From an uncultured Rikenellaceae bacterium (GTDB lineage Bacteria > Bacteroidota > Bacteroidia > Bacteroidales > Rikenellaceae), in contig CALVFY010000008.1 in NCBI GenBank assembly GCA_944326945.1, positions 9,994-73,993 of the forward strand: 64,000 nucleotides of DNA, given 5' to 3'. Position numbers and translations under genes: made by a program. The notes beneath the pieces were generated by a model. It did not search any database, was not told the DNA's origin, and saw nothing but the letters and a program-made list of their open reading frames with translations. Positions 37,994 through 60,372 of the stretch are shown in pieces. Position 1 is the first letter of the stretch; each line of letters starts with the position of its first letter.

Positions 37994-38713
37994 ATGGGAA
38001 AAAACAAACTCAAACGTTTCGAAGAAAATCTCACTTTCCGCAATCTGATACAACCCGCTTTCGACGAAGTCTTTCGTACGAATCACCCCTTGAAAGGCCA
38101 TTGGAGGCAAGACTTTTTCGGCAATGACCATCCTATCGTAGTCGAATTAGGCTGCGGACGAGGAGAATATACGCTTGCATTGGCCAGAAAATTTCCGGGA
38201 ATCAACTTTATCGGAGTAGACATTAAAGGAGCCCGTTTGTGGAGAGGAGCAAAAACAGCTTCGGAAGAGAGGCTGAATAACGCCGGATTTCTTCGTACCC
38301 GTATCGAATTTATCTCCGCAATGTTCGGCCCAGAAGAGATAAATGAGTTATGGATCACCTTTCCCGATCCTCAGCTCAAAAAAGGCAGGGTCAAAAAAAG
38401 GCTTACCGCCCCAGCCTTTTTGGAATATTATGCCGGTTTTCTGGTCAAAGGAGCCCCCATACACCTGAAAACAGATTCGCTTCACCTGCATAGGTATACC
38501 AAAGCGGTCATCGAGAAAAACGGTCTCACCACAGAAGCCGCTTGTGAAGACATTTACGGAAACAATTATGCCGACGAAATCCTTTCGATCAAGACAGCCT
38601 ACGAGACTCAATTCCTCAAACAGGGTCTGCCGATCACCTATTTGCGATTCAATTTGGGAGCTCGAAAAAAATTCGAAATGCCTCCATTCGAACCCGACGA
38701 AAATCTTTCCTGA
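37994..38713 (+). CDS. trmB: tRNA (guanine46-N7)-methyltransferase
   Basis: 239-aa ORF with the SAM-binding motif VVELGCGRGEYT and the motifs WITFPDPQLKK and HLKTD. Confidence 0.85.
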   Translation: MGKNKLKRFEENLTFRNLIQPAFDEVFRTNHPLKGHWRQDFFGNDHPIVVELGCGRGEYTLALARKFPGINFIGVDIKGARLWRGAKTASEERLNNAGFLRTRIEFISAMFGPEEINELWITFPDPQLKKGRVKKRLTAPAFLEYYAGFLVKGAPIHLKTDSLHLHRYTKAVIEKNGLTTEAACEDIYGNNYADEILSIKTAYETQFLKQGLPITYLRFNLGARKKFEMPPFEPDENLS

Positions 38714-38763
38714 GGATCAGAAAGACAAAAAACATAAAAATACACTATTTTTTCGCCACAGGA

Positions 38764-38795
38764 TTTGGTACAAACAAATAATTGATTTATATTTG
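38764..38795 (+). promoter_or_regulatory. Bacteroidota-type promoter for tRNA-Asn (TTTG-N20-TATATTTG)
   Basis: The -33 TTTG is at 38764-38767 and the -7 TATATTTG at 38788-38795, with consensus-like 20-nt spacing, about 67 nt upstream of the tRNA. Confidence 0.5.
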
Positions 38796-38862
38796 CACAC
38801 CGAAAAAGAGAAACCCCAGGCAAAAGGAGAAGAGAAAGTGGGACGGGGTGGAAAAGAGACAT

Positions 38863-38936
38863 TCCTCAATAGCTCAGTTGGTTAGAGCATCTGACTGTTA
38901 ATCAGAGGGTCCCAGGTTCAAGTCCTGGTTGAGGAG
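38863..38936 (+). tRNA. tRNA-Asn (anticodon GTT)
   Basis: A hand-folded cloverleaf is complete. The acceptor stem is TCCTCAA/TTGAGGA and the D stem is GCTC/GAGC. The anticodon stem TCTGA/TCAGA carries the loop CT-GTT-AA. The T stem CCAGG/CCTGG carries the loop TTCAAGT. The discriminator is G, and no CCA is encoded. Confidence 0.9.
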
Positions 38937-38940
38937 CTTG

Positions 38941-38988
38941 AAAATCAAGAACTTGCAGCATGTGTTGCAGGTTCTTGATTTTTTTGTT
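38941..38988 (+). terminator. Strong rho-independent terminator after tRNA-Asn
   Basis: 15-bp stem AATCAAGAACTTGCA-gcatgtgt-TGCAGGTTCTTGATT (one G-U pair) followed by TTTTTTG. Confidence 0.8.
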
Positions 38989-39087
38989 CATACACCATTT
39001 ACACACCACTCACTCCCTTAGACCTCTTGATATGCCAATAAACGGGATCAATCGGCACGAATATGCGCCCGTCCCTCCTGCTTCAAA

Positions 39088-39939
39088 TCACACAATCTTT
39101 TGATTGATATTACGGTACTGTTTCGGAGTAATACCATATATACGGTTGAATACACGATAGAAATATCCCAGATTGCGATAACCGCACTTGCAACAGATCT
39201 CTTTTATAGGCATACTGGTCATGGATAACTGACTTACGGCATAACGCATCTTCATTTCCAAAATAAGTGAGATCAAAGTCTTTCCCAGGCAACGTTTTAC
39301 CACACGATTTACATAATCCTCATTCCGGTTGCACAAAGAGACAAAATAGGATACTCCCTTGGTAAATGACTCGGGATTGTTATAGATCTTGATGGCATTG
39401 GCAAGCCACTCCGGGACATCAAGGAACTCCTCGATATGTACTTTCGAAACAATCTGCCGGAAAAGGAAAAGCAGAAAACTGTCCTGCTGGATAATGTTGC
39501 GTTCCTGTCTCATCAAATCCTCCGCCCTTGCAGATAGCCTCTTGAGAATGTCTTTGGAAAGGAAGGTATGAAACGGGACTATAGATTCAGTCCAAAAAAA
39601 GTCGGAGGATGTCTGAAAATAACGTTCCCTTAAAAAAGCGAGAGTCGACTTGGGGAAAGCTATATTCACCAGCGTCAATCCCTTTCCGAAAGAGGAAAAC
39701 GTATGAGTATCGTCAGGTCTTATCATATATAAGTCTCCGGCAGCAATCCGGACATCATGTCCGTTGACATGATGCACCCCCTCCCCGCATTCTATCCAGA
39801 ATATTTCCGAATAATCATGACAGTGATAGGTAAGGTCCTGTTTCGAAGTAATATTTACCCTTGCTATATGGAAAACTTCCCCGGCCCGAAGGAAGAAATC
39901 CAATGCAAATCTCTCGGCCATACTCCATTTTTTGCGCAA
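39088..39939 (-). CDS. AraC/XylS-family transcriptional regulator (N-terminal cupin sensor plus C-terminal double HTH)
   Basis: 283-aa ORF with an alternative start MAERF at 39921. The cupin part is HCHDYSEIFWIECGEGVHHVNG and the C-terminus is ICCKCGYRNLGYFYRVFNRIYGITPKQYR. It is divergent from the GRE operon. Confidence 0.85.
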   Translation of the reverse strand: MRKKWSMAERFALDFFLRAGEVFHIARVNITSKQDLTYHCHDYSEIFWIECGEGVHHVNGHDVRIAAGDLYMIRPDDTHTFSSFGKGLTLVNIAFPKSTLAFLRERYFQTSSDFFWTESIVPFHTFLSKDILKRLSARAEDLMRQERNIIQQDSFLLFLFRQIVSKVHIEEFLDVPEWLANAIKIYNNPESFTKGVSYFVSLCNRNEDYVNRVVKRCLGKTLISLILEMKMRYAVSQLSMTSMPIKEICCKCGYRNLGYFYRVFNRIYGITPKQYRNINQKIV

Positions 39940-40021
39940 AATTACATAAAAAGTCGGAATAAGATAAATAATCTACATTTTATCAAAATAAGTTCATCGC
40001 ATAAGGATAATAAATATAACA

Positions 40022-40029
40022 TAGCTTTG
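40022..40029 (+). promoter_or_regulatory. Candidate -7 promoter box (TAGCTTTG) for the GRE operon
   Basis: Matches TAnnTTTG, 14 nt upstream of the first in-frame ATG (40043). A later Met codon at 40076 (MTGTITTIQRMSIHDGPGIR) could be the real start. Confidence 0.35.
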
Positions 40030-40042
40030 TAAAGGAGTAAGT

Positions 40043-40969
40043 ATGATTTACGGACCTTTTCAAAACACTAATCCTATGACTGGTACAATAACCACTATAC
40101 AAAGGATGTCTATCCATGACGGTCCCGGAATCAGGTCTACCGTCTTTATGAAAGGATGCAACCTGAGGTGCAAATGGTGTCATAATCCGGAAACATGGAG
40201 TCGTGCAAAACAACTGCAACACATAGAATCGAAGTGTCTGCACTGTTTTTCATGTATTTCAGTATGTGAACAAAATGCCATTTCTTCCATTGAAAATCGC
40301 ATAAAGATAAACCATCAGGCATGCAATACTTGTGGCAAATGCTGTGAAAAATGCCCTTCGGAAGCCCTGTCGGCAATAGGACGGGAGGTGACGGCAGATT
40401 CTTTGACAGAAGAATTGGAAAAAGACAGGGTTTTCTACGAGACATCTTCCGGAGGAATTACAATATCCGGAGGAGAGCCCTTCATGCAGGCCGATTTTGT
40501 GATCGAACTGCTCGAACAATGCCAAAAAGAAGGATTGCATACTGCCATTGAAACCAACATGTCGATGCCCTGGGAATCCATATTCCCGGCCCTGTCTCAC
40601 ACAGACCTGTGGATGTGCGACCTGAAAGTATTTGATTCCGACAAACACAAATACTGGACAGGCGCGGGCAACGAAAGAATCATGGACAATTTGGCCAGAC
40701 TTGCCAAAACCGGAGCAGAAATGATAGTCAGAACTCCGGTAATTCCGGGTGTAAACGACAATGAATACGAAATAAAGAATATTTGCGGATTCCTGAAAAA
40801 AATCGGAGGCAATGTCAGATACGAACTGCTGAAATTCCACAATCTCGGTTTCGGAAAATTCGACAACCTGGGTATGACCAATGAAATGGACGCATCAGCC
40901 CATTTGGAAGACAGCACGTTTGAACAGCTGAATGAAATCGTCAAATCTAATTATTTCCCAAAACCATGA
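40043..40969 (+). CDS. Glycyl-radical enzyme activating protein (radical SAM, with two auxiliary ferredoxin-like clusters)
   Basis: 308-aa ORF with HDGPGIRSTVFMKGCNLRCKWCHNPE (the CX3CX2C radical SAM motif). It also has CLHCFSCISVC and CNTCGKCCEKCP (CX2CX2CX3C type). The SAM-binding region GGITISGGEP is present. Confidence 0.9.
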   Translation: MIYGPFQNTNPMTGTITTIQRMSIHDGPGIRSTVFMKGCNLRCKWCHNPETWSRAKQLQHIESKCLHCFSCISVCEQNAISSIENRIKINHQACNTCGKCCEKCPSEALSAIGREVTADSLTEELEKDRVFYETSSGGITISGGEPFMQADFVIELLEQCQKEGLHTAIETNMSMPWESIFPALSHTDLWMCDLKVFDSDKHKYWTGAGNERIMDNLARLAKTGAEMIVRTPVIPGVNDNEYEIKNICGFLKKIGGNVRYELLKFHNLGFGKFDNLGMTNEMDASAHLEDSTFEQLNEIVKSNYFPKP

Positions 40970-43101
40970 ACCGTTTCGATGAACGAATAGCCAGGCTCAG
41001 AGCCAGGAAATTAGCCCAAACAGAAGAAAAAAGAAAAATAGAGGGCGTACTTGATGAAGACGACTACGGCAGAATCGTTCCGCCTAAAGGTCTGTGGGAA
41101 CCAATGCCCAATTCTCCCGATGGCTCTTTTTACGGCTTCAAGGGATGGACGGACAACTTTTGTTCCCTGATGGATGTCCACCCTGTATATGTGGATGCAG
41201 ATGATGCCTTTACAGGCAGATGGATGTACTTCATGTCCAGAATGAGAAAAAACAAATGGAATCCCGATTATCCATACACTCATCTTGAAAAGGACATCGA
41301 AAAATACGATATTATCTGTGGCATCGGTGACGACGCCCACTTCGCCCCTGACTACAAGATGGGCGTAAGTCTCGGTTGGGGTGGTTTAATCGAGAAAATA
41401 GAAAAATACAAAACACTGAACAACAGCGCAGAGCAAAAGGAGTTTTATGACATTCACCTGCGTGCAATCCACAGTATCCAGGGATGGATGAAACGTCACA
41501 TAGAAAAATCCCTGGCAATGGCGGCAGAAGAATCTGACGAATGGAAACGCAACAATCTGCTGGCTCAGGCAGCAGTCAATAAAAACATATTGAACGCGGC
41601 ACCTACGACCCTTCGCGAAGCCTGCCAGTGGATAATCTGGTATCACCTGGCCTCAAGAACATACAATAGAGACGGTGCCGGCGGACAAATCGACAGTCTG
41701 CTCCAACCGTTCTATGAAAACGACTTGAAAAATGGTATCATTGACAGGGATACCGCGGTATACTATCTTGCATGTTTCCTTATCAACGATCCTATCTACT
41801 GGCAGTTGGGAGGCCCTGACAGAAACGGCAACGACCAGACATCTGAAATTTCATACCTCATTCTGGATGCCGCGGACAAGATAAACACCTCTCTGAATAT
41901 TACGATCAGAGTACACGACGGCCTGGATAAGAAGTTGTTTGACAAGGCTGTAGGCTATCTCGTAAAGAACAAGAATGGATGGCCGAGATTCTCCGGCGAC
42001 AAGGCTTTAGTGGAAGGATTCATGAGAAACGGATATTCCAAAGAGCTGGCTTTAGAAAGGATTGCCGTCGGATGCAACTGGATGTCATTGCCGGGTCTGG
42101 AATACACAATGAATGACTTGGTAAAGGTCAATATGGCCAAAGTATTTGAAGTCGCTCTGTACGAAACGCGTGAAAGTGAAAACATATGCACGGAATCTAT
42201 TTGGAATGCCTTTACAAAGCATCTTCAAATAGCAGTTCACACGGCTGCAGAGGGCATAAGACATCATTTGAAATATCAGAAATACAACGAACCGGAACTT
42301 CTGCTCAACCTTTTGAGTCATGGTCCTCTTGAAAAGGGGAAAGACGCATCCGACGGAGGTGCCCAATACTACAATCTGGCCATTGACGGAGCCGGACTGG
42401 CCATTGTTGCCGATTCCTTTGCTGCAATGGAAAGACATATTGAAGAACAACACGAAATCTCGTGGGGAGAACTGTTCTCCGCTTTGGAAAATGACTTCAC
42501 CGGAGATCAACACGAAAACACCAGAAGAATACTTAGAAAGACTGACAGATTTGGCAAGGAAAATTCCTGCGGTGAAAAATGGGCTGTCAGAATAAAGGAC
42601 TGCTTCACAGACATCGTCCGCAATGAATCAGAACCTGGCAAGTGTTTCATTCCCGGATTCTTTTCATGGGCCAACACGGTCGGATTCGGCAAAACCGTCG
42701 GAGCGACACCCGACGGACGACATGCCCGTAAACCTATTTCCCATGGAGCGAACCCTTCTCCGGGTTTTGTTTCCGACGGAGCGTCACTTTCACTGGCGAA
42801 GGCCGTTGCCAAAATCCAGCCCGGATACGGAAACACGGCACCGATGCAGTGGGAGCTGGATCCCACATTTGCCATGAGCAGCAACATTGAAATCATAGAG
42901 GCCATAATAAAAGCTCATTTTGAATTGGGGGGAACACTGATCAATGTGAACATAATGGATAAGGAAAAGATCTTGGAAGCCCATCGGAATCCGGACAAAT
43001 ATCCAGATCTTGTTGTCAGAGTCACCGGATTTACCGCATATTTTTCGATGTTGTCTCCTGAATTCCGCCAACTTGTCGTAGACAGACTCCTGGTAAGCTA
43101 A
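40966..43101 (+). CDS. Glycyl radical enzyme of the PFL-like fold, unassigned subfamily (711 aa)
   Basis: The start overlaps the activase stop (ATGA). The C-terminal glycyl-radical motif is DLVVRVTGFTAYFSMLSPEFRQLVVDRL, with Gly688 at 43027-43029. GATPDGRHARKPISHGANPSPG lies upstream. The candidate thiyl Cys370 is in ERIAVGCNWMSLPG (42073-42075), 318 residues before the Gly. Confidence 0.85.
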   Translation: MNRFDERIARLRARKLAQTEEKRKIEGVLDEDDYGRIVPPKGLWEPMPNSPDGSFYGFKGWTDNFCSLMDVHPVYVDADDAFTGRWMYFMSRMRKNKWNPDYPYTHLEKDIEKYDIICGIGDDAHFAPDYKMGVSLGWGGLIEKIEKYKTLNNSAEQKEFYDIHLRAIHSIQGWMKRHIEKSLAMAAEESDEWKRNNLLAQAAVNKNILNAAPTTLREACQWIIWYHLASRTYNRDGAGGQIDSLLQPFYENDLKNGIIDRDTAVYYLACFLINDPIYWQLGGPDRNGNDQTSEISYLILDAADKINTSLNITIRVHDGLDKKLFDKAVGYLVKNKNGWPRFSGDKALVEGFMRNGYSKELALERIAVGCNWMSLPGLEYTMNDLVKVNMAKVFEVALYETRESENICTESIWNAFTKHLQIAVHTAAEGIRHHLKYQKYNEPELLLNLLSHGPLEKGKDASDGGAQYYNLAIDGAGLAIVADSFAAMERHIEEQHEISWGELFSALENDFTGDQHENTRRILRKTDRFGKENSCGEKWAVRIKDCFTDIVRNESEPGKCFIPGFFSWANTVGFGKTVGATPDGRHARKPISHGANPSPGFVSDGASLSLAKAVAKIQPGYGNTAPMQWELDPTFAMSSNIEIIEAIIKAHFELGGTLINVNIMDKEKILEAHRNPDKYPDLVVRVTGFTAYFSMLSPEFRQLVVDRLLVS

Positions 43102-43134
43102 AGCAGCGTAAACACATAAAAAACACTGAAAAAA

Positions 43135-43551
43135 ATGGAACTGATTGAAAAATACAGTTATAACGGGAGCGGATACGACCCATTCCTGATAAGCGACAAC
43201 TGGCAGATTGCCATTCTGAACTATGCAGAGGCTGACAACATAGACTCAATATACAATTTGGATATTCACCATGAGACAGACGAAGCTTTCATGCTTATCC
43301 AGGGAGACATCGTCCTTATAAGCGCCTCAATAGAAGGCACTGATGTTTCTTTTGAGAATGTCAAGTTGGAACCGGGAATTGTATACAACATACCGAAGAA
43401 TGTATGGCACAAGGTTGCCACAACACCCGGCAGCAGCGTACTGATTATAGAAAAAGCCAATACCCACCTCGACGACTTTGAATTCCACGACCTTAATGAA
43501 AAACAAATCGCCGAACTGAGAAAAGACGTAAAATCAAAATTAAATAAATAA
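43135..43551 (+). CDS. Small cupin-fold protein of unknown function
   Basis: 138-aa ORF with cupin-like motifs: DIHHETDEAFMLIQGD (H-H-E...G) and EPGIVYNIPKNVWHKV (P-x-G...H). It sits between the GRE and the UroD-fold gene. Confidence 0.5.
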   Translation: MELIEKYSYNGSGYDPFLISDNWQIAILNYAEADNIDSIYNLDIHHETDEAFMLIQGDIVLISASIEGTDVSFENVKLEPGIVYNIPKNVWHKVATTPGSSVLIIEKANTHLDDFEFHDLNEKQIAELRKDVKSKLNK

Positions 43552-43557
43552 GCAATT

Positions 43558-44589
43558 ATGAACGGATATACAAGATGCCTGAAGGCTTTGAATTGGGAAA
43601 AGCCTGACCGAATACCGGTTATACCTCAGAACTCGGACATGTCGATTCACCTTTCCGGATATGGCATGAAAGAATGTCTGTATGACGGGAAAAAACTGGC
43701 AAACGCACTGCTCAGTGCACAAGAAAAAATGGGTTACGACGGCATTATGATTGGACCTGACGCCTCTATTCTGGCAGAAGCCACAGGATGTGAAGTAGAC
43801 TACAGAGATGACGATCCTCCTGCCGTTACCGCTCCAATCCTGACCCGCCTGGATGAGGTTGACAAACTGGAGGTGCCTGATTTAAGCAAAAATCAAAGGA
43901 TCAAAGCCTGGCTGGATGCCACAAAAGCCATCATAGAAAAGACCAAAGGCGAAATATTTGTAATTTGCCGTGCCGATCAAGGTGCATTTTCACTGGCATC
44001 CTTGTTGAGAGGCAGCCAGGAATTCATGATAGATCTTGCAATGGGAGAACAGCCGAAACAAGTCAAAAAACTGTTGGATTTTTCGAATAAACTCCACATA
44101 CAGTTTGCCGGCCTGATCAAAGAAAGCGGAGCACATGCCACCACTTGCGGAGACGCATACTGCGGACCCGGCCTGATAAGCCCTGAAATGTACAGGGAAT
44201 ACGCCCTCCCTTATCAGAAAGAGGCTGTAAAGGAAATTCAGGACAGAATGAAGTTGCCCTACTCCATACATATTTGCGGTGTAACGGATAAAATACACGA
44301 CTGTTGGCCTGATACCGACGCTAAATTCTTTGAAGTGGATCATTGTACGGATATAGTGTCGCTTAGGAAGAAAACGTATGGCAAGACCTCTCTTTTCGGA
44401 AACATAAATACGTCTTCTCTGTGCTTTTCATCTCCGGAAGAGATCAAAACAGAATGCAACGAATTGTTCGATAAAATTAACCCGTCAACCGGATTTATTC
44501 TGAGTTCCGGGTGCAGCATGTCAGCCAATTCAAAGACAGAAAATGTCATTGCCATGATGGAAGCTGCAAAAGAATATGCAATCAGATAA
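43558..44589 (+). CDS. Uroporphyrinogen-decarboxylase (URO-D) fold protein of the MtaA/MT2-like methyltransferase branch
   Basis: 343-aa ORF. The N-terminus CLKALNWEKPDRIPVIP...MGYDGIMIGPDASILAEATGCEV is typical of URO-D family members. The pattern H238-x-C240 (SIHICG, 44269-44277) plus C319 (SSGCS, 44512-44514) resembles the H-x-C-x(n)-C zinc site of MT2 enzymes. Confidence 0.75.
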   Translation: MNGYTRCLKALNWEKPDRIPVIPQNSDMSIHLSGYGMKECLYDGKKLANALLSAQEKMGYDGIMIGPDASILAEATGCEVDYRDDDPPAVTAPILTRLDEVDKLEVPDLSKNQRIKAWLDATKAIIEKTKGEIFVICRADQGAFSLASLLRGSQEFMIDLAMGEQPKQVKKLLDFSNKLHIQFAGLIKESGAHATTCGDAYCGPGLISPEMYREYALPYQKEAVKEIQDRMKLPYSIHICGVTDKIHDCWPDTDAKFFEVDHCTDIVSLRKKTYGKTSLFGNINTSSLCFSSPEEIKTECNELFDKINPSTGFILSSGCSMSANSKTENVIAMMEAAKEYAIR

Positions 44590-44785
44590 GTTCTTCCACG
44601 GTTTTCAGAACAAAATGTCTCCATGGCGAAGTGCTTCTCTTCAACAGAGGGGCACTTCACCCCCTTGAATTACTGCACAATACATTCCCGATACAAGTAT
44701 TTTAACTTGAACAAAGCTGAAGTTCGATGCAAGTTTTTGAAAAGGTCCGACACAATATAAGTTCGTATAATAATTCTATCATAGA

Positions 44786-45934
44786 ATGAAGAATATGGCA
44801 AAATTATTACCGATATTACTCTCATTCTACGTAATGGGGTTTGTAGACATGGTTGGTGTCTCAACGAGTTATGTAAAACAAGACTTTTCGTTGAGCGATA
44901 CGTTAGCCAACCTGCTGCCGATGTTGGTATTTCTTTGGTTTGCGGTCTGTTCCTTACCCGCGGGCATGTTGACAGGGAAAATTGGACGTAAAAAAACAGT
45001 CTTGTTAAGTACGGTAGTGACGTTCGTAGCCATGCTGTTACCCATTATCCACTATTCGTATGCAGTCATATTGCTGTCGTTTGCCTGTTTGGGTATAGGC
45101 AATACCATACTTCAGGTCTCCTTAAATCCGTTATTGGCCAGCATAGTCAATCCGTCGAAACTGACAAGTATGTTATCTTTGGGAACTTTTATCAAAGCCA
45201 TCGCCTCCATGGGCAGTCCTCTGATTTTGGGTTTTGCCGTCAGTCTGACCGGTAAATGGCAGTGGATATTCCCCATCTATTCCGGTATCACTTTGCTGTC
45301 TGCCGTGTGGTTGTGGGCCACCCCGTTTGAAGAAACTATCGTGGAAACCAAGAGACATTCTTTTGTTTCGATTATAGCATTGTTGAAAAATTCGTTTTTA
45401 TTACAATGCTTTTTAGCCATTGTCTTGAGTGTAGGCTTTGAAATAGGATTGATGACTGCTGTCCCCACGTTTCTGTTTGAACGCTTCGAAATGCCCCTGG
45501 AACAGGGAGGAATGGGATGCAGCCTTTACTATCTTGCACGTATGTCAGGGACCTTTATCGGCTCCATTGTTTTAGCGAAGATATCTCCATTCCGCTTTAT
45601 CCGTTGGAACTTATTGGCAGCTCTACTGTCTTTTGTCACATTTGTTGTGTCGCCGAATACGACAGGATGTTTGGTCTCCCTGTTCTTGTTGGGTCTCTGC
45701 TGTGCCAATATTTTCCCCATCATGTTCTCCGCGGCTTTGCAGCACTCTCCGGAAAACACCGACAACCTCTCCGCACTGATGATCATGGGCATAGCCGGAG
45801 GGGCCGTTTTACCTATGATAATGGGCGCAGTCGCAGATATGAGCAATCAAACGGTCAGCCTGATTGTGCCGTTCCTGGCTTTAGTATACATATATTATGT
45901 GGCTATATCCCAAAAGGATATATGCAAGAGGTGA
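44786..45934 (+). CDS. MFS transporter resembling the fucose/galactose/glucose:H+ symporter (FHS) family
   Basis: 382-aa polytopic ORF with the N-terminus FYVMGFVDMVGVSTSYVKQDFSLSDTLANLLPMLVFLWFAVCSLPAGMLTGKIGRKKT, which is FucP/GlcP-like. Confidence 0.75.
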   Translation: MKNMAKLLPILLSFYVMGFVDMVGVSTSYVKQDFSLSDTLANLLPMLVFLWFAVCSLPAGMLTGKIGRKKTVLLSTVVTFVAMLLPIIHYSYAVILLSFACLGIGNTILQVSLNPLLASIVNPSKLTSMLSLGTFIKAIASMGSPLILGFAVSLTGKWQWIFPIYSGITLLSAVWLWATPFEETIVETKRHSFVSIIALLKNSFLLQCFLAIVLSVGFEIGLMTAVPTFLFERFEMPLEQGGMGCSLYYLARMSGTFIGSIVLAKISPFRFIRWNLLAALLSFVTFVVSPNTTGCLVSLFLLGLCCANIFPIMFSAALQHSPENTDNLSALMIMGIAGGAVLPMIMGAVADMSNQTVSLIVPFLALVYIYYVAISQKDICKR

Positions 45935-46081
45935 CTTCATTAGATACCGTATGACAGTTCCTCGCGGAGAGACTCCGGACGGACATTCCTCTGCGCCAAC
46001 AGATGGGTCGGTTTATAAAGGGATATATCAATATGTTTTCTAAAAAACCACATCATCTATTTCTTTTTTTAACCATTTAGG

Positions 46082-46089
46082 TATCTTTG
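46082..46089 (+). promoter_or_regulatory. Candidate -7 promoter box (TATCTTTG) upstream of the aldo/keto reductase
   Basis: Matches TAnnTTTG, 46 nt upstream of the ATG at 46135. Confidence 0.35.
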
Positions 46090-46134
46090 TATCATTATTG
46101 CATATCTTTCTGTTGTCATAAAAAACGTCCGGTT

Positions 46135-46992
46135 ATGAAATTGAAATCGCTGCAAGACACCTATTCACTCTGTAACGGGAACAAAATACCTTGCGTAGGA
46201 TTCGGGACTTTTCTCACTCCGGAGGGAAGCACTACCGTCAATTCTGTCAAGGAAGCGCTTCGCGTAGGCTATCGGCTGATCGATACTGCCGCCATCTACG
46301 GAAACGAACGAAGCGTGGGTCAAGCTATTCGCGAAAGCGGCGTCGGCCGCGACGAAATCTTCGTCACCAGCAAACTGTGGAACCGGGACCAGGGATATGA
46401 ATCGACTCTGGAAGCCTTCGATCGGACAATGAACGCCCTGGGGATGGACTATCTCGACCTCTATCTGATCCACTGGCCCATCGGCAAAGGTCACGAACAC
46501 GATTGGGCCGAGATGAATCGCGAAACCTGGCGAGCCATGGAAAAACTCTATCGCGACGGATATATCGGGGCCATCGGGGTAAGTAATTTCATGCCTCATC
46601 ATATCGAATCGTTGATGGTGACCGCAACGATTGCCCCTATGGTCGACCAAATCGAAATCCATCCGGGCCTCAACCATACCCAAGCCGTAGAGTACTGTCA
46701 ATCCCACGACATTGCCGTAGAGGCATGGGGTCCGCTCTCCCAAGGTCATCTTTCCGAAATGCCTGCCTTGAATGAAATTGCCGAACGCCACGGCAAAACG
46801 GTCGCCCAGATCTGTCTGCGTTGGCATCTGCAAAGAGGAATCATTCCTCTTCCCAAATCGGTTACCCCTTCGCGGATCGAAGAGAACAGTCGTATTTTCG
46901 ATTTCGAACTGACGCCCCGGGAGATGGAATTCATCGGTCAGATAAACGGACCTGTCGGGTCGGGAGCCGATCCGGATAAAGTGGCCCACTAA
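46135..46992 (+). CDS. Aldo/keto reductase (2,5-diketo-D-gluconate reductase-like)
   Basis: The ORF opens at 46087, but the likely start is MKLKSLQDTY at 46135. AKR motifs are present: GFGTF, DTAAIYGNE, SKLWN, LDLYLIHWP, IGVSNF and IPKS. Confidence 0.9.
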   Translation: MKLKSLQDTYSLCNGNKIPCVGFGTFLTPEGSTTVNSVKEALRVGYRLIDTAAIYGNERSVGQAIRESGVGRDEIFVTSKLWNRDQGYESTLEAFDRTMNALGMDYLDLYLIHWPIGKGHEHDWAEMNRETWRAMEKLYRDGYIGAIGVSNFMPHHIESLMVTATIAPMVDQIEIHPGLNHTQAVEYCQSHDIAVEAWGPLSQGHLSEMPALNEIAERHGKTVAQICLRWHLQRGIIPLPKSVTPSRIEENSRIFDFELTPREMEFIGQINGPVGSGADPDKVAH

Positions 46993-47011
46993 GCAACCCA
47001 CCAACAAATTA

Positions 47012-47045
47012 AATCGGCGTATTCGAAATTTCGAATACGCCGATT
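47012..47045. terminator. Bidirectional terminator hairpin between the AKR and phoU genes
   Basis: Perfect 34-nt palindrome AATCGGCGTATTCGAA-AT-TTCGAATACGCCGATT between two convergent stops. Confidence 0.7.
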
Positions 47046-47073
47046 GTTCATCTCACAGAATCAGGAATGCGGA

Positions 47074-47778
47074 TTACTTTTTCCCCTCCGGGGACTTCTT
47101 GTCCGATTTTTCCTGAGAATCATTGTGTTTAAGCACTTTGGCATCAATATAGAAGACTATTTCTTCGGCAATATTGGTCAAATGATCGCCTGTACGCTCC
47201 AATTTACGGAAAACGCCTCCGAATTCGAAACACAGCGGAATCGCATCGGTATTGTGCTTGGCATAATCGATCAAAATACCTCCCGAAGCCCGCTTAATCC
47301 GATCGAGTTGGTCATCCATTCCCAATACAGCCGCCGCTTTCTCTGCATCCTCTTCATTAAAGGCCTCCTGCAACTCCTCGAGCATGTTCAGCACGAGAGT
47401 AAACATGGTATCCACCTGCAAATCCTGCAACAAACGGTCATCTATTTCCTGAACATCTATATCCCTTACAAAACGGGCGATTCCATCCGCATAATCGCCG
47501 ATTCGCTCCAAATCGCTATTGATCTTGAGTATGGCCAGCACAAAGCGCAGATCGACAGCCACCGGATTATACAATGCAATAAAATCCTCCACATCGCTAT
47601 CTATCTTCAACTCAAAAGCATCCACCCGCCGCTCACGCACCACGATTTGTTGGGCCAACTGACGATCGAGCGTCATAACCGCCTGCCGGGCCTGATCCAT
47701 CTGATTGTAGACCAATGTCCACATTTGATCGACCTCTCTACGGAGCTGCACTAACTCCGATTCGATAAACTTTACCAT
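47074..47778 (-). CDS. phoU: Phosphate signalling complex protein PhoU
   Basis: 234-aa ORF with two PhoU repeats (ERIGDYADGIARF and ERTGDHLTNIAEEI), placed downstream of pstB. Confidence 0.85.
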   Translation of the reverse strand: MVKFIESELVQLRREVDQMWTLVYNQMDQARQAVMTLDRQLAQQIVVRERRVDAFELKIDSDVEDFIALYNPVAVDLRFVLAILKINSDLERIGDYADGIARFVRDIDVQEIDDRLLQDLQVDTMFTLVLNMLEELQEAFNEEDAEKAAAVLGMDDQLDRIKRASGGILIDYAKHNTDAIPLCFEFGGVFRKLERTGDHLTNIAEEIVFYIDAKVLKHNDSQEKSDKKSPEGKK

Positions 47779-53244: not shown

Positions 53245-54480
53245 CTATTTCGAAAGATAGGCCGTTTTGAATTGCTCCGTAGAGTAGATTCCGGCACAGA
53301 ACGAAACAGGAGTTCTGTTGTCATCGTCATACTCGACAAGGCCCATCGTCGTCGTATTATAAGTGGCGAAGACATTCCCCATGATAGGCACAATCAGCCG
53401 GTTCGTCCACGGATCAACCGCCATGTAACCGGAAAGACCATTGAAATTCTCCGTCGTATTCTCTATGCTTACCTTCTTCAAAGTTCCCGTAGTATAGTCA
53501 TACCGGCAAATACTATCCGTTCTATAATAATCGGTATCATACTCCCCTGCAAAATAGAGCGCATCTTCGTTCAGACTGGCACACATGGCGACATTGGGCG
53601 TATAGGTCATCACAGGGAAATCCACACCAATCTCCGTCTCGGAGAGGATATTGCCCGAGTGATCCATCTTGACAATTTTAGATTTAGAAGTATATGTTGC
53701 CTCCATTCCCGACATTTCGAACGTTCCGGAAACCGCCAGATACAGATTCCCATCTTTACCCTTGACCACATCTTTCACCTGACGACCTTCGAAAGAGACC
53801 CGTTTTACGATCTGATCGGTCGACGGATCGATAATCACGAGACTCTCCCCACATGATGCATAAATTCGGTTCCGACTGACAAGCATCCGTGCTTTAGCGG
53901 CACCCGATTTGGAAAATTCCCCGTAGGTTCCGTCAATATCAGCTGCGGCAAGTTGCCGGGAAGTCAAATCGAACACCCGGATCCCGGAATGAGTCTCATA
54001 GGTGGAAACGGCATACTGCATATAAATCTTGTTGTTTGCCACCACAATATGCTGAGGATGATTATCCTCACCCAAATCTACGGCCTCGATGACCTGTTCG
54101 ATTTTCAACGTCTCGGCATTCAGAATCACGATCTGGCCGTCTCCTCCATGGACAGCACCTTTCTGCGAGAGCAAATACATCTTACCATCGGCAATATACA
54201 TATCTTCGAGCAGAGCGCCTGCCTGATGTCCAGGATTACAGGCCTCATACACATCGCCCGCCGTTGCAAAGATGGGAAGTTGCGTCGAATTGGGCGCCAT
54301 GAAATAGATTTGTCCGTTCTGACCGGAATTAGCATTGCCCTCCATCAGGAAATACACCCCCTCCTTCACCGCAGGCTCGGGATCGGGGGTCGGTCCTCCC
54401 TCGTTTTTATCACAGGCAACAAACGCCAACAGGGCGACCACTCCAAAACAAAGTTTACTGAAAATGTCTTTTTTCTTCAT
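53245..54480 (-). CDS. Surface lipoprotein with a YncE-like beta-propeller repeat pattern; B12-regulated, possibly a BtuG-like corrinoid-binding protein
   Basis: 411-aa ORF with the lipoprotein signal LCFGVVALLAFVAC. Blade-like segments recur: GKMYLLSQ, NNKIYMQYA, RNRIYASCGESLVIIDPSTDQIV, DGNLYLAVSG, ALYFAGEY, NRLIVPIMG. A cobalamin riboswitch lies directly upstream. Confidence 0.5.
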   Translation of the reverse strand: MKKKDIFSKLCFGVVALLAFVACDKNEGGPTPDPEPAVKEGVYFLMEGNANSGQNGQIYFMAPNSTQLPIFATAGDVYEACNPGHQAGALLEDMYIADGKMYLLSQKGAVHGGDGQIVILNAETLKIEQVIEAVDLGEDNHPQHIVVANNKIYMQYAVSTYETHSGIRVFDLTSRQLAAADIDGTYGEFSKSGAAKARMLVSRNRIYASCGESLVIIDPSTDQIVKRVSFEGRQVKDVVKGKDGNLYLAVSGTFEMSGMEATYTSKSKIVKMDHSGNILSETEIGVDFPVMTYTPNVAMCASLNEDALYFAGEYDTDYYRTDSICRYDYTTGTLKKVSIENTTENFNGLSGYMAVDPWTNRLIVPIMGNVFATYNTTTMGLVEYDDDNRTPVSFCAGIYSTEQFKTAYLSK

Positions 54481-54599
54481 TGTGTATAAAATATTGGTTT
54501 GAACTTTTTTCTCAACCGGATTTTACACACAACGGAGCCGAAAAGGCAGATGCGACAAGCAAGAAGACCGTTTCCCATTCTCCGTAGGAATGCAAAATC

Positions 54600-54775
54600 C
54601 GTTGCATTGGCAGGTCTTCTGACTCGTCTCGTTTTCAAGGTCTTCCCAGTAAGGACCAGTGACTTCCATCTTGAAAACACGCCTCCGGAGAACTTCCGGA
54701 TGAGACTCACAGCAGCGGGAACTGTTGTCGACTTTCACGACATTCCCTTTTAATCCCCTCAACGGGAACCAATAC
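54600..54775 (-). promoter_or_regulatory. Cobalamin (B12) riboswitch
   Basis: The minus strand reads GGTTCCCGTTGAGGGGATTAAAAGGGAATGTCGTGAAAGTCGACAACAGTTCCCGCTGCTGTGAG...GAGTCAGAAGACCTGCC. The conserved AAAAGGGAA, GTGAAAGTC and CAGTTCCCGCTGCTGT core elements are present. The B12 box AGTCAGAAGACCTGCC lies about 130 nt upstream of the lipoprotein ATG. Confidence 0.8.
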
Positions 54776-54781
54776 AGAGTG

Positions 54782-54812
54782 CAAAAATGAGTTTTTTATT
54801 TCAGATTGCAAA
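54782..54812 (-). promoter_or_regulatory. Candidate promoter for the riboswitch-lipoprotein transcript (TTTG-N19-CATTTTTG)
   Basis: On the minus strand, TTTG (plus-strand CAAA at 54809-54812) is followed 19 nt later by CATTTTTG (plus 54782-54789). That is one mismatch to TAnnTTTG, and it ends just upstream of the aptamer. Confidence 0.4.
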
Positions 54813-56925: not shown

Positions 56926-57615
56926 ATGACAAAATCTTCCTCCTTACAGCAAATCATCGATAAACTCCATGCATTGTCAGATCTGACCGGAGCCGAAAAG
57001 ATGAAACATTTCGGTATTGCAGCCGATCATGCACTGGGTATCCCCATTCCGAAACTGCGTGCCATAGCCCGCGAATATCGTCCTGACCATCCACTGGCAC
57101 TGGCTCTTTGGGACGAACCGTGGCACGAATGCCGATTGCTCGCCCCAATGGTGGCCGATCCGGCTCTCGCCACACCGGAACTGCTCGACGCCTGGTGTGC
57201 CGACTTCAACTCGTGGGACATCTGCGACCAGTGCTGCTCCAACCTTTTCCGCTACCTGCCTTTCGCCTATGACAAAATTTACGAATATGCGCCCCGGCCC
57301 GAGGAGTTTGTCCGCCGGACAGCCTTCGCTCTCATGGCAACCCTCGCGGTAGGCGATAAAAAAGCACAGGACGAACAGTTCCTGCCACTGTTCGTCCTGA
57401 TTGAAACCTATTCGGCCGACCCGCGCAATTTCGTGAAAAAGGCCGTGAACTGGGCACTCCGACAAATCGGGAAACGGAATCAGAGACTCTATGTTCCCGC
57501 ACTCGAATTGAGTCGCAAACTCTCCCTCTCCTCAGACCCCACGGCCCGATGGATCGGTCGTGATGCTCTCCGGGAACTTTCAGACCCGAAAATCATCGCC
57601 CGGATCAAGCCCTGA
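56926..57615 (+). CDS. DNA alkylation repair protein (AlkD-like HEAT-repeat family)
   Basis: 229-aa ORF containing HFGI...LGIPIPKLRAIAREY...LALALWDEPWHECRLLA...NFVKKAVNWALRQIGKRN. Confidence 0.75.
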   Translation: MTKSSSLQQIIDKLHALSDLTGAEKMKHFGIAADHALGIPIPKLRAIAREYRPDHPLALALWDEPWHECRLLAPMVADPALATPELLDAWCADFNSWDICDQCCSNLFRYLPFAYDKIYEYAPRPEEFVRRTAFALMATLAVGDKKAQDEQFLPLFVLIETYSADPRNFVKKAVNWALRQIGKRNQRLYVPALELSRKLSLSSDPTARWIGRDALRELSDPKIIARIKP

Positions 57616-57627
57616 GAAGGTCGAATA

Positions 57628-58269
57628 CTATTTGTGACGCCGCTCCAGCTCCTTCTCCAGGTCGGCAATCGAGCAGCCCGTAGCCTCCAGCAGCACCAAT
57701 AGGTGATAGATCAGATCGGAGGCCTCGTAGATCATGTCGGCCTTGTTACAGGCCACGGCCTCGATCACCGTCTCTACAGCCTCCTCACCCACCTTCTGAG
57801 CGATCTTGTTCACCCCGCGCTGGAAAAGTTTCGTCGTATAGGATCCCTCCGGCATATCACGGTGACGCTGACGGATCACCCGTTCCAACTCCCGAATAAA
57901 TCCTTCGGTATAGGGAACTTTTTCGCCGGCTTCAGCCTTGGCTCGGGTCTCCGCATCAGCAAAACAGGTCTTGGTTCCCGTGTGACAGGTGGGCCCGTGA
58001 GGATCGACCCGGATCAATAACGTGTCGGCATCGCAATCCACCGCAATGGAGACTACATCCAGATAATTACCACTCGTTTCCCCTTTAGTCCAAAGACGTC
58101 CCTTCGTTCGGCTGTAAAAAGTGACACGTCCCTCGGTCTGTGTCTTTTCGAGTGCTTCCCGATTCATATACCCCAACATCAGTACAGCCAGGGAGGCATC
58201 GTCCTGAATAATGACCGGAATCAAACCGTCGCCGCACTTGGCAGCATTCAAATCTTCGAATTTAATCAT
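57628..58269 (-). CDS. hisIE: Bifunctional phosphoribosyl-AMP cyclohydrolase / phosphoribosyl-ATP diphosphatase
   Basis: 213-aa ORF. The HisI part has SRTKGRLWTKGETSGN...DCDADTLL...GPTCHTG and the HisE part has KVGEEAVE...EASDLIYHLLVLL. Confidence 0.9.
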   Translation of the reverse strand: MIKFEDLNAAKCGDGLIPVIIQDDASLAVLMLGYMNREALEKTQTEGRVTFYSRTKGRLWTKGETSGNYLDVVSIAVDCDADTLLIRVDPHGPTCHTGTKTCFADAETRAKAEAGEKVPYTEGFIRELERVIRQRHRDMPEGSYTTKLFQRGVNKIAQKVGEEAVETVIEAVACNKADMIYEASDLIYHLLVLLEATGCSIADLEKELERRHK

Positions 58270-58286
58270 CTTATCATTAGATTTAA

Positions 58287-59045
58287 TTAGATCAATCTCA
58301 CGGGAATCCCCATCGTATGCAACTCCTTCTTCAACCGAGGAATCGGAATCTCCCCATAATGAAAAATACTGGCCGCCAATGCCGCATCGGCCCGACCCAT
58401 AGTAAGAACATCTGCTATGTCCTGCACCGATCCGGCACCGCCCGAAGCCACCACCGGGATCGACAACAGATCGGACAATCGTGCAAAAGTTTCACAAGGA
58501 TATCCGTTCTTCGTCCCATCGTGGTCCATCGAGGTGAATAGAATCTCCCCCGCGCCACGCTCCTGAGCTTCCCGGGCCCACGCAAAAAGTTCTCTCTCGG
58601 TGGGCCGTTTGCCTCCGTGTGTAGTCACCGTCCAGCGTCCGTCGATCTGCTTGGCGTCAATCGCCACTACGACAAACTGATTCCCATATTTGGCGGCAAT
58701 CTCGTCGATCAACTCAGGACGACGAACTGCCGCACTGTTTACCGTAATTTTATCCGCCCCGGCACGCAACAACAGACCGGCATCCTCCACCGAAGAGATG
58801 CCTCCTCCCACCGTAAAGGGAATATTGATCTGCCGGGCGATACGCGTTACCAGTTCGGCAAAGGTCTTACGCCCCTCAAGCGTAGCACTTATGTCGAGAT
58901 AGACCAGCTCATCGGCCCCCTCCTCGGCATATTTCTTTCCCAACTCCACCGGATCGCCTACCTGTTGGAGTCCCAGAAAATTAATTCCTTTCACCGTAGC
59001 CCCATCCTTGATGTCAAGACAGGGAATTATCCGTTTTGCAAGCAT
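58287..59045 (-). CDS. hisF: Imidazole glycerol phosphate synthase cyclase subunit
   Basis: 252-aa ORF containing [15 protein letters not shown]...VKG...DELVYLDI...GGGI...AGADK...NSAAV...[15 protein letters not shown]. Confidence 0.95.
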
Positions 59046-59755
59046 GTTTCCAACTCCTTAAGAGTAATACGACCTTCGTAAATCGCCTTTCCTACAATCA
59101 CACTGCGGAGTCCGCGAGCATTCAAAGCCAATATATCATCCATCGAGCCCACGCCTCCGCTGACAGTAATATTTATTACAGAATATTTAGTTTGAAGCCG
59201 TTCATACATCTCGAATGCAGGCCCTTGCAACATTCCATCTTTCGAGATATCGGTACAGATCACCTGGCTCAATCCGAACGGCGCGAAACAATCTATCAAC
59301 TCGTCCACACTCCGTTCCGATTCGCGCAACCAGCCATGAGTGGCCACTTTACCGTCCCGAACATCGGCTCCAAGGATCACATGTTCCGGCCCGAAATCCT
59401 TCAGCCACTGGGCAAAAAACTCCGGATCGGTCACCGCCACACTTCCGCAAATCACCCGGTTGGCACCACTATCGAGTACCGCCCGCAGAGAATCGGCGCT
59501 TTTAATACCACCGCCCCACTGAATATCGAGTTTCGTACGGGTAGCCACACGCTCCAACACCTTCAGATTCATGGGTGACGAAGCCTTTGCTCCATCCAGA
59601 TCGACCAGATGGATCCTTCGCAATCCGATCGCCTCGTAACGGACCGCCACTTCGGCCGGATCCTTAAAATAGGAGGTCTTACGTCCATAATCGCCCTGCG
59701 TCAGACGAACACATTCTCCCCCAATAATATCGATGGCAGGTATAATCTCGATCAT
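59027..59755 (-). CDS. hisA: 1-(5-phosphoribosyl)-5-[(5-phosphoribosylamino)methylideneamino]imidazole-4-carboxamide isomerase
   Basis: 242-aa ORF containing [23 protein letters not shown]...HLVDLDGA...QWGGGI. It overlaps hisF by 19 nt. Confidence 0.9.
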
Positions 59756-60372
59756 AATTCCAAAAAGTTTTTCAGTATCCGTTCCCCAATCCGGCCACTC
59801 TTTTCGGGATGGAACTGTGTTCCATAAAAATTATCTCGTCCCAATGCCGCACTGAAAGGCATACCATACAGAGTCGTGGCAATGGTCTGCCGGGAAAGTT
59901 CCGGCGCATAAGAGTGGACATAATAGACGTACGCACCCTCATCCAAGCCGGCAAACAACGGAGTACGCAGATGTGCGATCGTATTCCATCCCATTTCGGG
60001 CACTTTCAGCCGCTTCGCCACCGGCCCCATACATCCGCAAGGACAAACAGGACGAGCACCGAGCCGTTTGACCTCCGCATCGAAAATTCCCATACAAGGC
60101 GTATTACCCTCTTCGCTGCGACGACACATCAATTGTACACCGATACAAATCCCCAACACAGGTTGGGTGAGCGAACGAATCACCTCGACCAGGCCACGCT
60201 GTCTCAACTTCTCCATCGCCGTCGAAGCCTCTCCCACACCGGGCAACAATACCCGTTCAGCCCCACGAATCTTCGCCGGATCGTCCGTCACCATAAATTC
60301 CGCCCCCAATCGTCCCAAAGCATTGGCCACGGAACGGAGATTACCCGTATCGTAATCAATCACCGCGATCAT
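59752..60372 (-). CDS. hisH: Imidazole glycerol phosphate synthase glutamine amidotransferase subunit
   Basis: 206-aa ORF containing [15 protein letters not shown]...LLPGVG...[10 protein letters not shown] (catalytic Cys)...VPEMGWN...HSY...FHPEKS. A short Cys-rich insert precedes VPEMGWN. Confidence 0.9.

Follow-up and report, generated by a model that had tools for sequence, protein, structure and literature searches.

Which reaction does a glycyl radical enzyme (GRE) carry out when its gene set maps onto no characterised GRE pathway? The question is raised by a block at positions 38989-46080 of a 64,000-nucleotide stretch of DNA from an uncultured Rikenellaceae bacterium (GenBank assembly GCA_944326945.1, contig CALVFY010000008.1; the whole stretch is referred to as the window, and all coordinates are window-wide). 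A first-pass annotation had described the block as an accessory island with an orphan GRE system, in which a divergent AraC-family regulator precedes a same-strand array of activase, GRE, cupin, UroD-fold and transporter genes. The open reading frames (ORFs) match this gene order exactly, and Pfam and NCBIfam confirm the domain identities of the listed genes except the 138-aa cupin, which is identified by an AlphaFold2 (AF2) model and its match to PDB 3d0j. The system represents an unstudied GRE family with a diagnostic loop motif inside a known enzyme superfamily, and it is neither rare nor unique to this genome but a conserved multi-phylum family. The genes of the block are as follows.

39088-39921, minus strand, AraC-family regulator, divergent from the operon (alternative TTG start at 39939)
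40043-40969, plus strand, GRE activase, a radical-SAM protein (TIGR02494)
40966-43101, plus strand, GRE of 711 aa, overlapping the activase gene by 4 nt (Pfam PFL-like and Gly_radical)
43135-43551, plus strand, cupin of 138 aa, recognized from its AF2 fold
43558-44589, plus strand, UroD-fold protein of 343 aa (Pfam URO-D, E = 9e-62)
44590-44785, spacer of 196 nt between the UroD-fold and MFS genes
44786-45934, plus strand, MFS transporter of 382 aa (MFS_1, 3e-30)

The glycyl radical enzyme and its cysteine loop

GREs share a C-terminal fingerprint, RVxG[FWY]x6-8[FL]x4Qx2[IV]x2R, which contains the radical glycine (PMC13450708). The window GRE shows R685-V-T-G688-F ... L696 ... V704 ... R707, with G688 at the glycyl radical site (Gly_radical, 4.5e-13), and its sole deviation from the published fingerprint is R701 at the Q position, with Q702 next to it. 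In the HMMER alignment its Cys loop reads V-G-C370-N371-W372, versus V-G-C-V-E in PflD, so that C370 falls on the position of the catalytic Cys in PflD, in HypD and in the Archaeoglobus GRE, and W372 takes the Glu position of the C-x-E motif. Residues C370, N371, W372 and G688 are invariant among 18 family members of 68-82% identity. The AF2 model (pTM 0.80) is predicted to form the ten-stranded barrel of the superfamily, its loop regions being of low confidence, and Foldseek aligns it to more than 40 GRE chains at TM 0.73-0.79, the top matches being GREs alone. The model is poor in two places, residues 370-385 (the Cys loop) and 680-711 (the glycyl domain), and its active-site geometry there is not interpretable. 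The activase scores 356 bits against the TIGR02494 cutoff of 174 and falls below all substrate-specific activase equivalogs; its translation shows the radical-SAM motif C39-x3-C43-x2-C46 and two ferredoxin-type (auxiliary-cluster) Cys motifs, C65/68/71/75 and C94/97/100/104. Fingerprint, catalytic Cys, fold and cognate activase together identify the GRE as a genuine member of the superfamily.

On sequence grounds, however, the window GRE lies outside every characterised family. Its best NCBIfam match is the PFL2/glycerol-dehydratase subfamily TIGR01774, at 273 bits versus a cutoff of 678, and the equivalog models give 72-220 bits versus cutoffs of 994-1150. The pyruvate formate-lyase (PFL) model TIGR01255 gives 72 of 994 bits, HypD 198 of 1100 and CutC 157 of 1050; over the HypD, CutC, HpsG/HpfG, IAD and HPAD equivalogs the scores range from 88 to 198 bits, and none reaches its cutoff (1000-1150). 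PflD is the best match by sequence (E = 4e-53). Solved GREs are at most 20% identical (17-20%, structure-based); PflD (8yjo) comes marginally first at TM 0.79, and propanediol and glycerol dehydratases, CutC and HypD follow close behind at TM ~0.75. The first ~120 residues are clade-specific, and Pfam and ordinary GREs align only from about residue 120 onward. A review of June 2026 (Imrich et al., PMC13450708) includes no enzyme resembling the window GRE, and literature full-text searches found neither this GRE family nor a GRE-UroD pairing described; passing mentions in PMC7660257, PMC10266427 and PMC9888536 proved irrelevant. The enzyme is thus an orphan with respect to the characterised pathways, as the first-pass annotation had stated.

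The Cys loop offers the clearest distinction. Every C-O, C-N and C-S eliminase has C-x-E, as do the three GRE isomerases, and the Glu of this motif binds and deprotonates the substrate hydroxyl; a two-cysteine loop is restricted to PFL and TdcE (PMC13450708). The window GRE has neither C-x-E nor the Cys-Cys of PFL, which is consistent with the earlier failure to map it onto a known pathway. Because Trp stands in place of the C-x-E Glu, its chemistry cannot be a simple copy of known eliminases or isomerases; judging from the alignment, the base and perhaps the type of reaction would differ from theirs. E379, in the motif PG-x-E-Y, was considered as a substitute for this Glu and dropped, since many ordinary C-x-E GREs have a Glu there as well. 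Identity as a small-subunit decarboxylase or an X-succinate synthase is ruled out by motif and context, and so is identity as PFL or a microcompartment-type dehydratase. Compared with the GRE 1,2-eliminases (glycerol/propanediol dehydratases, HypD, CutC, IslA and HpsG), the window GRE has a similar fold (TM ~0.75), the same activase type (TIGR02494) and the leaving-group-protonating His position, kept as H125 and aligned to the PflD His. It differs from them in lacking the C-x-E Glu, in scoring far under their equivalog cutoffs, and in having no microcompartment or aldehyde dehydrogenase genes. The gene list of the block indeed contains no microcompartment, aldehyde dehydrogenase or GRE small-subunit genes, which bears out the earlier reading.

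The loop extends beyond the family. An exhaustive HMMER search of 1.84 billion cluster representatives returned 858 GRE-like proteins at E <= 1e-30. Among the best 150 of these, the combination of G/A-C-[NHQFP]-W ... P-G-x-E-Y with R-V-T-G is found in at least 21 full-length representatives, which share 26-57% identity with the window GRE, and C370 is invariant throughout them; the lower-ranked full-length matches are essentially all G-C-x-E. Judged by these motifs, the C-x-W loop marks a larger GRE superclade.

Distribution, gene neighbourhoods and partner proteins

Among 185,579 GTDB species (one genome per species), the GRE family has 117 relatives of 50-82% identity in five phyla. The hosts include Bacteroidales (Alistipes, Bacteroides, Cryptobacteroides, Dysgonomonas), Marinilabiliales (Carboxylicivirga, Draconibacterium, Prolixibacteraceae, Labilibaculum), Cytophagales (Flammeovirga), Bacillota (Paenibacillus, Oscillospiraceae, Lachnospiraceae, Faecalispora, Chakrabartyella), and Spirochaetota and Fusobacteriota (Sphaerochaeta, Fusobacteriaceae). 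The clade is found in gut Bacteroidales of humans, chickens, ruminants and horses, as well as in anaerobes from the sea and from sediments. Three contigs binned as Synergistaceae or Paceibacterota (L001, L030 and L037) carry the same GRE beside Bacteroidota-typical SusC/TonB-type and GH92 genes, and these bin labels are probably wrong.

Gene neighbourhoods were compared in 75 species-level loci, for which ORFs within 8 kb of the GRE were called and clustered and the cluster representatives annotated with Pfam and NCBIfam. The resulting counts are approximate, as they come from a simple ORF caller, single-linkage clusters and phylogenetically non-independent loci. An activase is found near the GRE in 67 of the 75 loci, a sugar-type transporter of any kind in 41, an AraC regulator in 31 and SusC in 15. 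Glycoside hydrolases (GHs) of families GH92, GH38, GH47, GH76 or GH130 occur in 30 loci, and a sialidase, a NanA-like lyase or a NanM-SSF set in 8. The 138-aa cupin is also present in 30 loci, all of them within the 53 Bacteroidota-type loci and always immediately downstream of the GRE. The transporters belong to many types (RhaT-family 19, sugar-porter MFS 10, ABC 6, and FHS-like MFS, NanM-SSF and TRAP 4 each), and the commonest adjacent one scores 357 bits against a cutoff of 369 with the L-rhamnose/H+ symporter model. Many transporter families beside one highly conserved enzyme argue for a single imported sugar-like substrate. A typical locus combines AraC, activase, GRE, a small cupin and a sugar transporter, and in Bacteroidota it often lies inside a polysaccharide-utilisation locus in which alpha-mannosidases and other mannoside-degrading enzymes predominate.

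In loci L001-L008 the order is AraC, activase, GRE, cupin and RhaT, followed by GH92/GH28 or SusC/SusD/GH76, and in five of them (L001 and L005-L008) the GRE genes form one continuous run with the RhaT, SusC/D and GH92/GH76 genes. With gaps of 14-25 nt, the GRE genes of L001-L008 belong to a polysaccharide-utilisation locus. The Bacillota and Spirochaetota loci have another arrangement downstream of the GRE: first a ~255-aa protein that has cupin-like motifs but no Pfam match, then a ManA-like cupin protein. GFO/IDH/MocA, UxuA, UxaC, PfkB, ROK, TRAP or ABC genes are nearby. A manno-related context recurs, comprising mannosidases, GH130, an AGE-fold epimerase, a protein resembling ManA, mannonate dehydratase and nonulosonate lyases (which yield manno-configured products), and this recurrence indicates mannose-rich glycans as the source. 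The earlier suggestion of an inducible anaerobic catabolic module, possibly for a sugar-derived substrate, fits these neighbourhoods.

Two variations in gene content were observed. Between activase and GRE, L001-L004 have a 56-aa ORF without Pfam match (e.g. 7756-7926 in L001), which may encode a small accessory subunit or be called in error; no such ORF is present in the window, where the two genes overlap. In three Bacteroidales loci (L033, L045 and L060) the small cupin is replaced by a ~275-aa protein without Pfam match and a PhyH-family (double-stranded beta-helix) protein, followed by a sugar-porter MFS. By eye only, the ~275-aa protein resembles a xylose-isomerase-type TIM barrel, and these loci would carry a different tailoring set for the same GRE.

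The small cupin itself has no Pfam match. Its AF2 model (pLDDT 94.9) has one close structural match, CA_C3497 of Clostridium acetobutylicum, a structural genomics entry (PDB 3d0j), at TM 0.94 across all 138 residues; the two sequences match at E = 1e-17, with 28% identity. Since 3d0j has no assigned function, the match yields no mechanism. A word-index search gave just 10 relatives of the cupin. D43, H45, E50 and H92 are invariant; they form a putative metal site, and would be compatible with the metal site of cupin sugar isomerases. Profile comparison detected no link between the small cupin and the ~255-aa or PhyH/TIM-barrel partners of other lineages.

The UroD-fold protein scores 162 bits with the MtaA/CmuA subfamily TIGR01463, below the cutoff of 235, and is closest to the MtaA-type methylcobalamin:thiol methyltransferases (4ay7, E = 6e-17). 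Its zinc ligands H238, C240 and C319 align with HICG and GC of MtaA 4ay7 and are kept in 7/7 orthologues, which places it closer to a methyltransferase than to a decarboxylase. It shares with the corrinoid:thiol methyltransferases MtaA, MtbA and MtsA the URO-D TIM-barrel fold and the H-x-C...C zinc ligands; it differs from them in its subthreshold score, in the lack of a corrinoid protein, an MtaB-type partner and a coenzyme M pathway nearby, and in its host, which is a member of Bacteroidales and not a methanogen. No corrinoid-binding protein is found among the called genes of the block or of the annotated UroD-containing loci, the search covering the 64 kb of the genome in the window. Within the family the UroD-fold partner is encoded in the window, in L032 and in five loci from Prolixibacteraceae. 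The latter have GH38 in 5/5, and three of them (L036, L049 and L059) have an AGE-fold epimerase. L032 holds the closest GRE relative (82% identity); its UroD-fold gene follows a GH47 gene, and the module adjoins a DPP-IV-type peptidase, with additional GH47 and GH38-like genes. On the co-occurrence of GRE, cupin and UroD-fold genes, the cupin is the commonest Bacteroidota partner (30/53) and the UroD-fold protein an optional one in this family.

The MFS transporter of the window is FHS/gluP-like, with weak gluP, NagP, TsgA and fucP matches, and has orthologues beside the GRE locus in L043, L048, L049 and L061. The regulator combines a cupin sensor domain with a helix-turn-helix (Pfam AraC_binding, Cupin_2, HTH_18 and HTH_AraC), and its best NCBIfam matches, all weak, are ChbR, RhaR and RhaS.

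UroD-family genes also recur outside the family. Three separate C-x-W branches adjoin UroD-family genes and sugar transporters, namely the window family, a G-C-H-W clade (~43% identical) and a G-C-F-W-Y-C clade (28%). For the G-C-H-W clade, a metagenome scan seeded with divergent clades yielded 80 loci, whose usual order is activase, GRE, UroD and ABC sugar transporter; by tblastn, a UroD-family gene lies within 300 nt of the GRE in 15/80 and within 3 kb in 17/80. In the G-C-F-W-Y-C clade the order is GFO/IDH/MocA, SIS, ABC sugar transporter, UroD, activase, GRE and UroD. There are few UroD-family genes per genome, and adjacency to the GRE at this frequency is therefore far above chance. The UroD partners of the three clades are 16-22% identical to each other and have H-x-C in common, the third ligand being Cys, Asp or His, so the association is either ancient or convergent. 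Because UroD-superfamily genes recur beside sister GRE clades, the GRE-UroD pairing is the most interesting lead from this locus. Other genes near the sister clades include GFO/IDH/MocA, enolase-superfamily, GH95 and PfkB-HAD genes. In one locus (L099, 12-1058) a 348-aa class II aldolase/adducin-family gene lies immediately upstream of a G-C-F-W-Y-clade GRE (P0291), which hints that the sister clades feed a sugar-phosphate aldolase step.

Candidate reactions

Taken together, we consider it rather probable that the block was acquired horizontally and encodes an anaerobic catabolic operon under AraC control, which breaks down a monosaccharide derivative from glycans by a new GRE reaction. The MFS transporter would import a monosaccharide or derivative released from mannose-rich or related glycans, a role that a RhaT-type, sugar-porter, SSF, TRAP or ABC transporter would take in other genomes, and the AraC protein would sense the imported sugar and induce the operon. 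In the activated GRE, the C370 thiyl radical would take a hydrogen atom from a sugar carbon, and the enzyme would then perform an O2-independent transformation beyond the reach of ordinary isomerases and kinases. The likeliest such reaction may be a C-O cleavage that leads to a deoxy-keto sugar, whether by dehydration, by opening of the ring or by removal of an ether substituent. The predicted metal-binding cupin could isomerise this product into a form accepted by housekeeping sugar pathways, and the MtaA-like zinc protein may have an accessory tailoring role, perhaps in the transfer of an alkyl or methyl group.

Several points weigh against this proposal. The evidence from sequence and context names no specific substrate, and mannose itself needs no radical enzyme, so that the mannosidase context indicates a modified sugar only indirectly. 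The loss of the C-x-E glutamate disfavours the standard ketyl-elimination mechanism, which is the one preferred here. No dedicated kinase or aldolase is encoded in the 75 loci examined, and the window's own block has no glycoside hydrolase. Moreover, the neighbour counts derive from a crude ORF caller, single-linkage clusters and non-independent loci, and the AF2 model is weak exactly at the Cys loop and the glycyl domain.

The catabolic operon could alternatively serve the anaerobic de-etherification of O-methylated sugars, which we regard as possible but unlikely. Here the GRE would abstract a hydrogen beside a methoxy-bearing carbon and expel methanol or otherwise cleave the methyl ether, and the MtaA-like zinc protein would handle the methyl group or a thiol co-substrate, giving an oxygen-free counterpart of the P450 sugar demethylases. 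The UroD superfamily includes O-, S- and halide-demethylases and CoM methyltransferases (PMC10418091), and the window protein keeps the MtaA zinc ligands; in the sister clades a UroD-family gene lies within 300 nt of the GRE in the 15 of 80 loci mentioned above, and UroD genes flank the GRE on both sides in the third clade. Methylated sugars block normal catabolism, and their demethylation has been characterised via cytochrome P450 monooxygenases (PMC6292453). Furthermore, Bacteroidota protein O-glycans, which are commonly O-methylated, have a Man-Rha-GlcA core (PMC12871550), which matches the GH92, GH38, GH47, GH78 and GH28 neighbours. Nevertheless, a UroD gene lies within 8 kb of the GRE in just 4 of the 75 species-level loci, the window being a further case, no corrinoid protein is encoded nearby, and no glycosidase specific for methylated sugars was identified. 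Given their low mutual identity (16-22%) and differing third metal ligand, the UroD proteins beside the three GRE clades may not share a function, and the support for this explanation comes purely from context. In a broader form, which we put forward with equally low expectation, the G-C-x-W-x3-P-G-x-E-Y GREs would be a deep superclade with a new reaction class on carbohydrates, working alongside UroD-superfamily zinc proteins; the most attractive version would be an O2-independent cleavage of sugar methyl ethers or other unactivated ethers.

An alternative radical route for a 6-deoxyhexose (L-rhamnose, L-fucose) or a derivative seems improbable. It draws on the transporter most often adjacent to the GRE, which comes near the L-rhamnose/H+ symporter cutoff (357 versus 369 bits), on RhaR and RhaS among the weak best matches of the AraC protein, and on GH78, GH29 and GH95 neighbours, to which the sister clades add class II aldolase and enolase-superfamily genes. 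Against it, alpha-mannosidase families are ~5 times commoner as neighbours than GH78, the canonical rhamnose and fucose pathways are already anaerobic, and the window transporter is of a different type (FHS-like MFS). One of the closest known systems is the Bacteroides rhamnose regulon, in which a monosaccharide-sensing AraC regulator (RhaR) is divergent from a catabolic operon with a proton symporter, and relatives have a near-RhaT transporter; the window block differs from it in its FHS-like MFS, in having no RhaA, RhaB or RhaD, and in its core, which is a radical enzyme.

There is only a slight chance that the GRE performs a non-PTS "anhydroglycolysis", in which it would ring-open an unphosphorylated 1,5-anhydro-alditol (1,5-anhydromannitol or 1,5-anhydroglucitol) or a related anhydro sugar. 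To our knowledge, Bacteroidota have no uptake by the phosphotransferase system (PTS), so a proton symporter followed by the GRE is the layout to be expected. The known enzymes PflD and YbiW convert 1,5-anhydromannitol-6-P and 1,5-anhydroglucitol-6-P into 1-deoxyfructose-6-P, the PflD substrate being manno-configured (PMC13450708), and PflD is the best match of the window GRE both in sequence (E = 4e-53) and in fold (TM 0.79). PflD/YbiW and the window GRE belong to the same superfamily and share its fold; each has one catalytic Cys, its own activase with two auxiliary clusters and a context of sugar substrates. On the other hand, they are only ~20% identical, the window loop is C-N-W versus C-V-E, and the Glu that deprotonates the C2-OH in PflD and YbiW is Trp here; the window GRE is also ~70 residues shorter, with another N-terminus. 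PflD is only marginally closer than propanediol/glycerol dehydratases, CutC and HypD. The window-family loci have no PTS, kinase or aldolase genes, including any gene of the fructose-6-phosphate-aldolase type; they lie within polysaccharide-utilisation loci with a cupin partner, and anhydro-alditols are not released by polysaccharide-utilisation loci with mannosidases.

That the enzyme is merely a divergent copy of a known GRE (pyruvate formate-lyase, or glycerol or propanediol dehydratase), in which case the low GC would be unremarkable, is hardly credible: public annotations do call relatives "formate acetyltransferase" or "pyruvate formate lyase family protein" and the overall fold is like that of the dehydratases, but the loop has a single Cys versus the Cys-Cys of PFL and TdcE and lacks C-x-E, the PFL (72 versus 994 bits) and PFL2/glycerol-dehydratase (273 versus 678) models are far from satisfied, microcompartment or aldehyde-processing genes are not present, and the N-terminal ~120 residues are clade-specific.

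Earlier discoveries of new GRE functions have revealed important gut-microbial chemistry, such as the formation of trimethylamine, H2S and p-cresol and the use of hydroxyproline and anhydro-sugars. The C-x-W clade is embedded in glycan-utilisation loci, and a simple motif suffices to find it, since its catalytic loop is distinctive. Once its reaction is assigned, anaerobic carbohydrate catabolism would gain a new radical step, and the recurrent partners, UroD-like and 3d0j-like cupin proteins, would gain a function. If the cleavage of sugar ethers were true, it would be the anaerobic route that the P450 sugar demethylases cannot provide and would account for the use of methylated glycans by gut and sediment anaerobes. 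The question is directly testable, since some carriers are in culture (Carboxylicivirga, Flammeovirga, Labilibaculum filiforme, Puteibacter, Faecalispora jeddahensis and Chakrabartyella piscis among them), the minimal gene set is conserved and there is a candidate operator.

The block as a probable acquired module and its surroundings

The proposed catabolic operon lies in a compositionally distinct block. The first-pass annotation had estimated a drop in composition directly after the tRNA-Asn terminator, and the computed values agree with it: GC content is 44.1% in the block versus 50.3% in the remaining window, the block being the window's lowest-GC 7-kb stretch (z = -5.0 versus 171 non-overlapping stretches of the same size). 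GC per gene is 41-46.5% within the block, versus 52.9% for the flanking aldo-keto reductase and 50.3% for PstB, and the tetranucleotide deviation is maximal at 38-43 kb (0.25-0.28 versus the usual 0.12-0.16). The block starts 52 nt past the tRNA-Asn(GTT), the sole tRNA that ARAGORN finds in the window. RNA elements were searched with Rfam. The features at the left boundary and in the AraC-activase intergenic region are as follows.

38863-38937, plus strand, tRNA-Asn (GTT) by ARAGORN (Rfam tRNA, 73 bits), left boundary of the low-GC block
38940-38983, plus strand, terminator-like hairpin 3' of tRNA-Asn, a 20-pair stem followed by a T-run (same as inverted repeat I1)
39954-39967, no strand given, conserved box TCGGAATAAGATAA in the AraC-activase intergenic region, candidate operator
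40022-40029, plus strand, TAGCTTTG, fits TAnnTTTG

The same site was compared in relatives. By TrmB, whose best matches are at most 80% identical and come from Alistipes and Tidjanibacter relatives, the organism belongs to an undersampled Rikenellaceae lineage. The block is present at the same site in two further assemblies of the same species, one of which is 99.8% identical across 22 kb. In the nearest different relative (L094/L095; TrmB 80%), PSP1, GldH, TrmB and tRNA-Asn are kept, while homology to the window ends at ~39015 in L095, ~80 nt past tRNA-Asn, and the following gene has no counterpart in the window; this is the one close relative sampled for an empty site, on short contigs. In more distant relatives TrmB is followed by other genes and a GRE is not present, and in the distant Rikenellaceae L096-L098 both flanks are rearranged, hence they show no clean empty site. 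As had been noted at first reading, there is no integrase-type ORF, and positions 38700-47200 contain no att-like repeat of the 3' end of the tRNA; a transposase was not found either. The block is best described as an accessory module that was acquired, and its status as a tRNA-associated island is supported by composition, tRNA adjacency and variability (in one relative), no signature of mobility having been detected.

As for regulation, boxes resembling TCGGAATA[AG]CGTAA are aligned in the AraC-activase intergenic regions of the window and of four relatives (L005, L011, L014 and L032), and this motif is a candidate AraC operator. The TAGCTTTG element is aligned in the same four relatives. 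TAnnTTTG is the Bacteroidota -7 promoter consensus; the element lies merely 13 nt before the ATG, however, which makes a promoter role uncertain. Rfam detects no riboswitch or other element in the block, and no cobalamin riboswitch beside the MtaA-like gene.

Elsewhere, a cobalamin riboswitch (RF00174, 93.6 bits) is located at 54592-54788 on the minus strand, directly upstream of a DUF5074 gene (~53245-54480, minus strand), and its presence shows that genes of this organism are controlled by the availability of corrinoids. The riboswitch is ~8.5 kb away from the MtaA-like gene and unlinked to it. At the right edge of the low-GC block, public gene calls include a 37-aa ORF (45940-46053, minus strand) between the MFS and aldo-keto reductase genes. 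Further downstream, a perfect 17+17-nt palindrome, AATCGGCGTATTCGAAA / TTTCGAATACGCCGATT, lies at 47012-47045 between the convergent aldo-keto reductase and phoU genes and is probably a bidirectional terminator. A second compositional shift is seen at 57000-60000, near the his genes, where GC rises up to 57% and the tetranucleotide deviation reaches 0.18-0.21.

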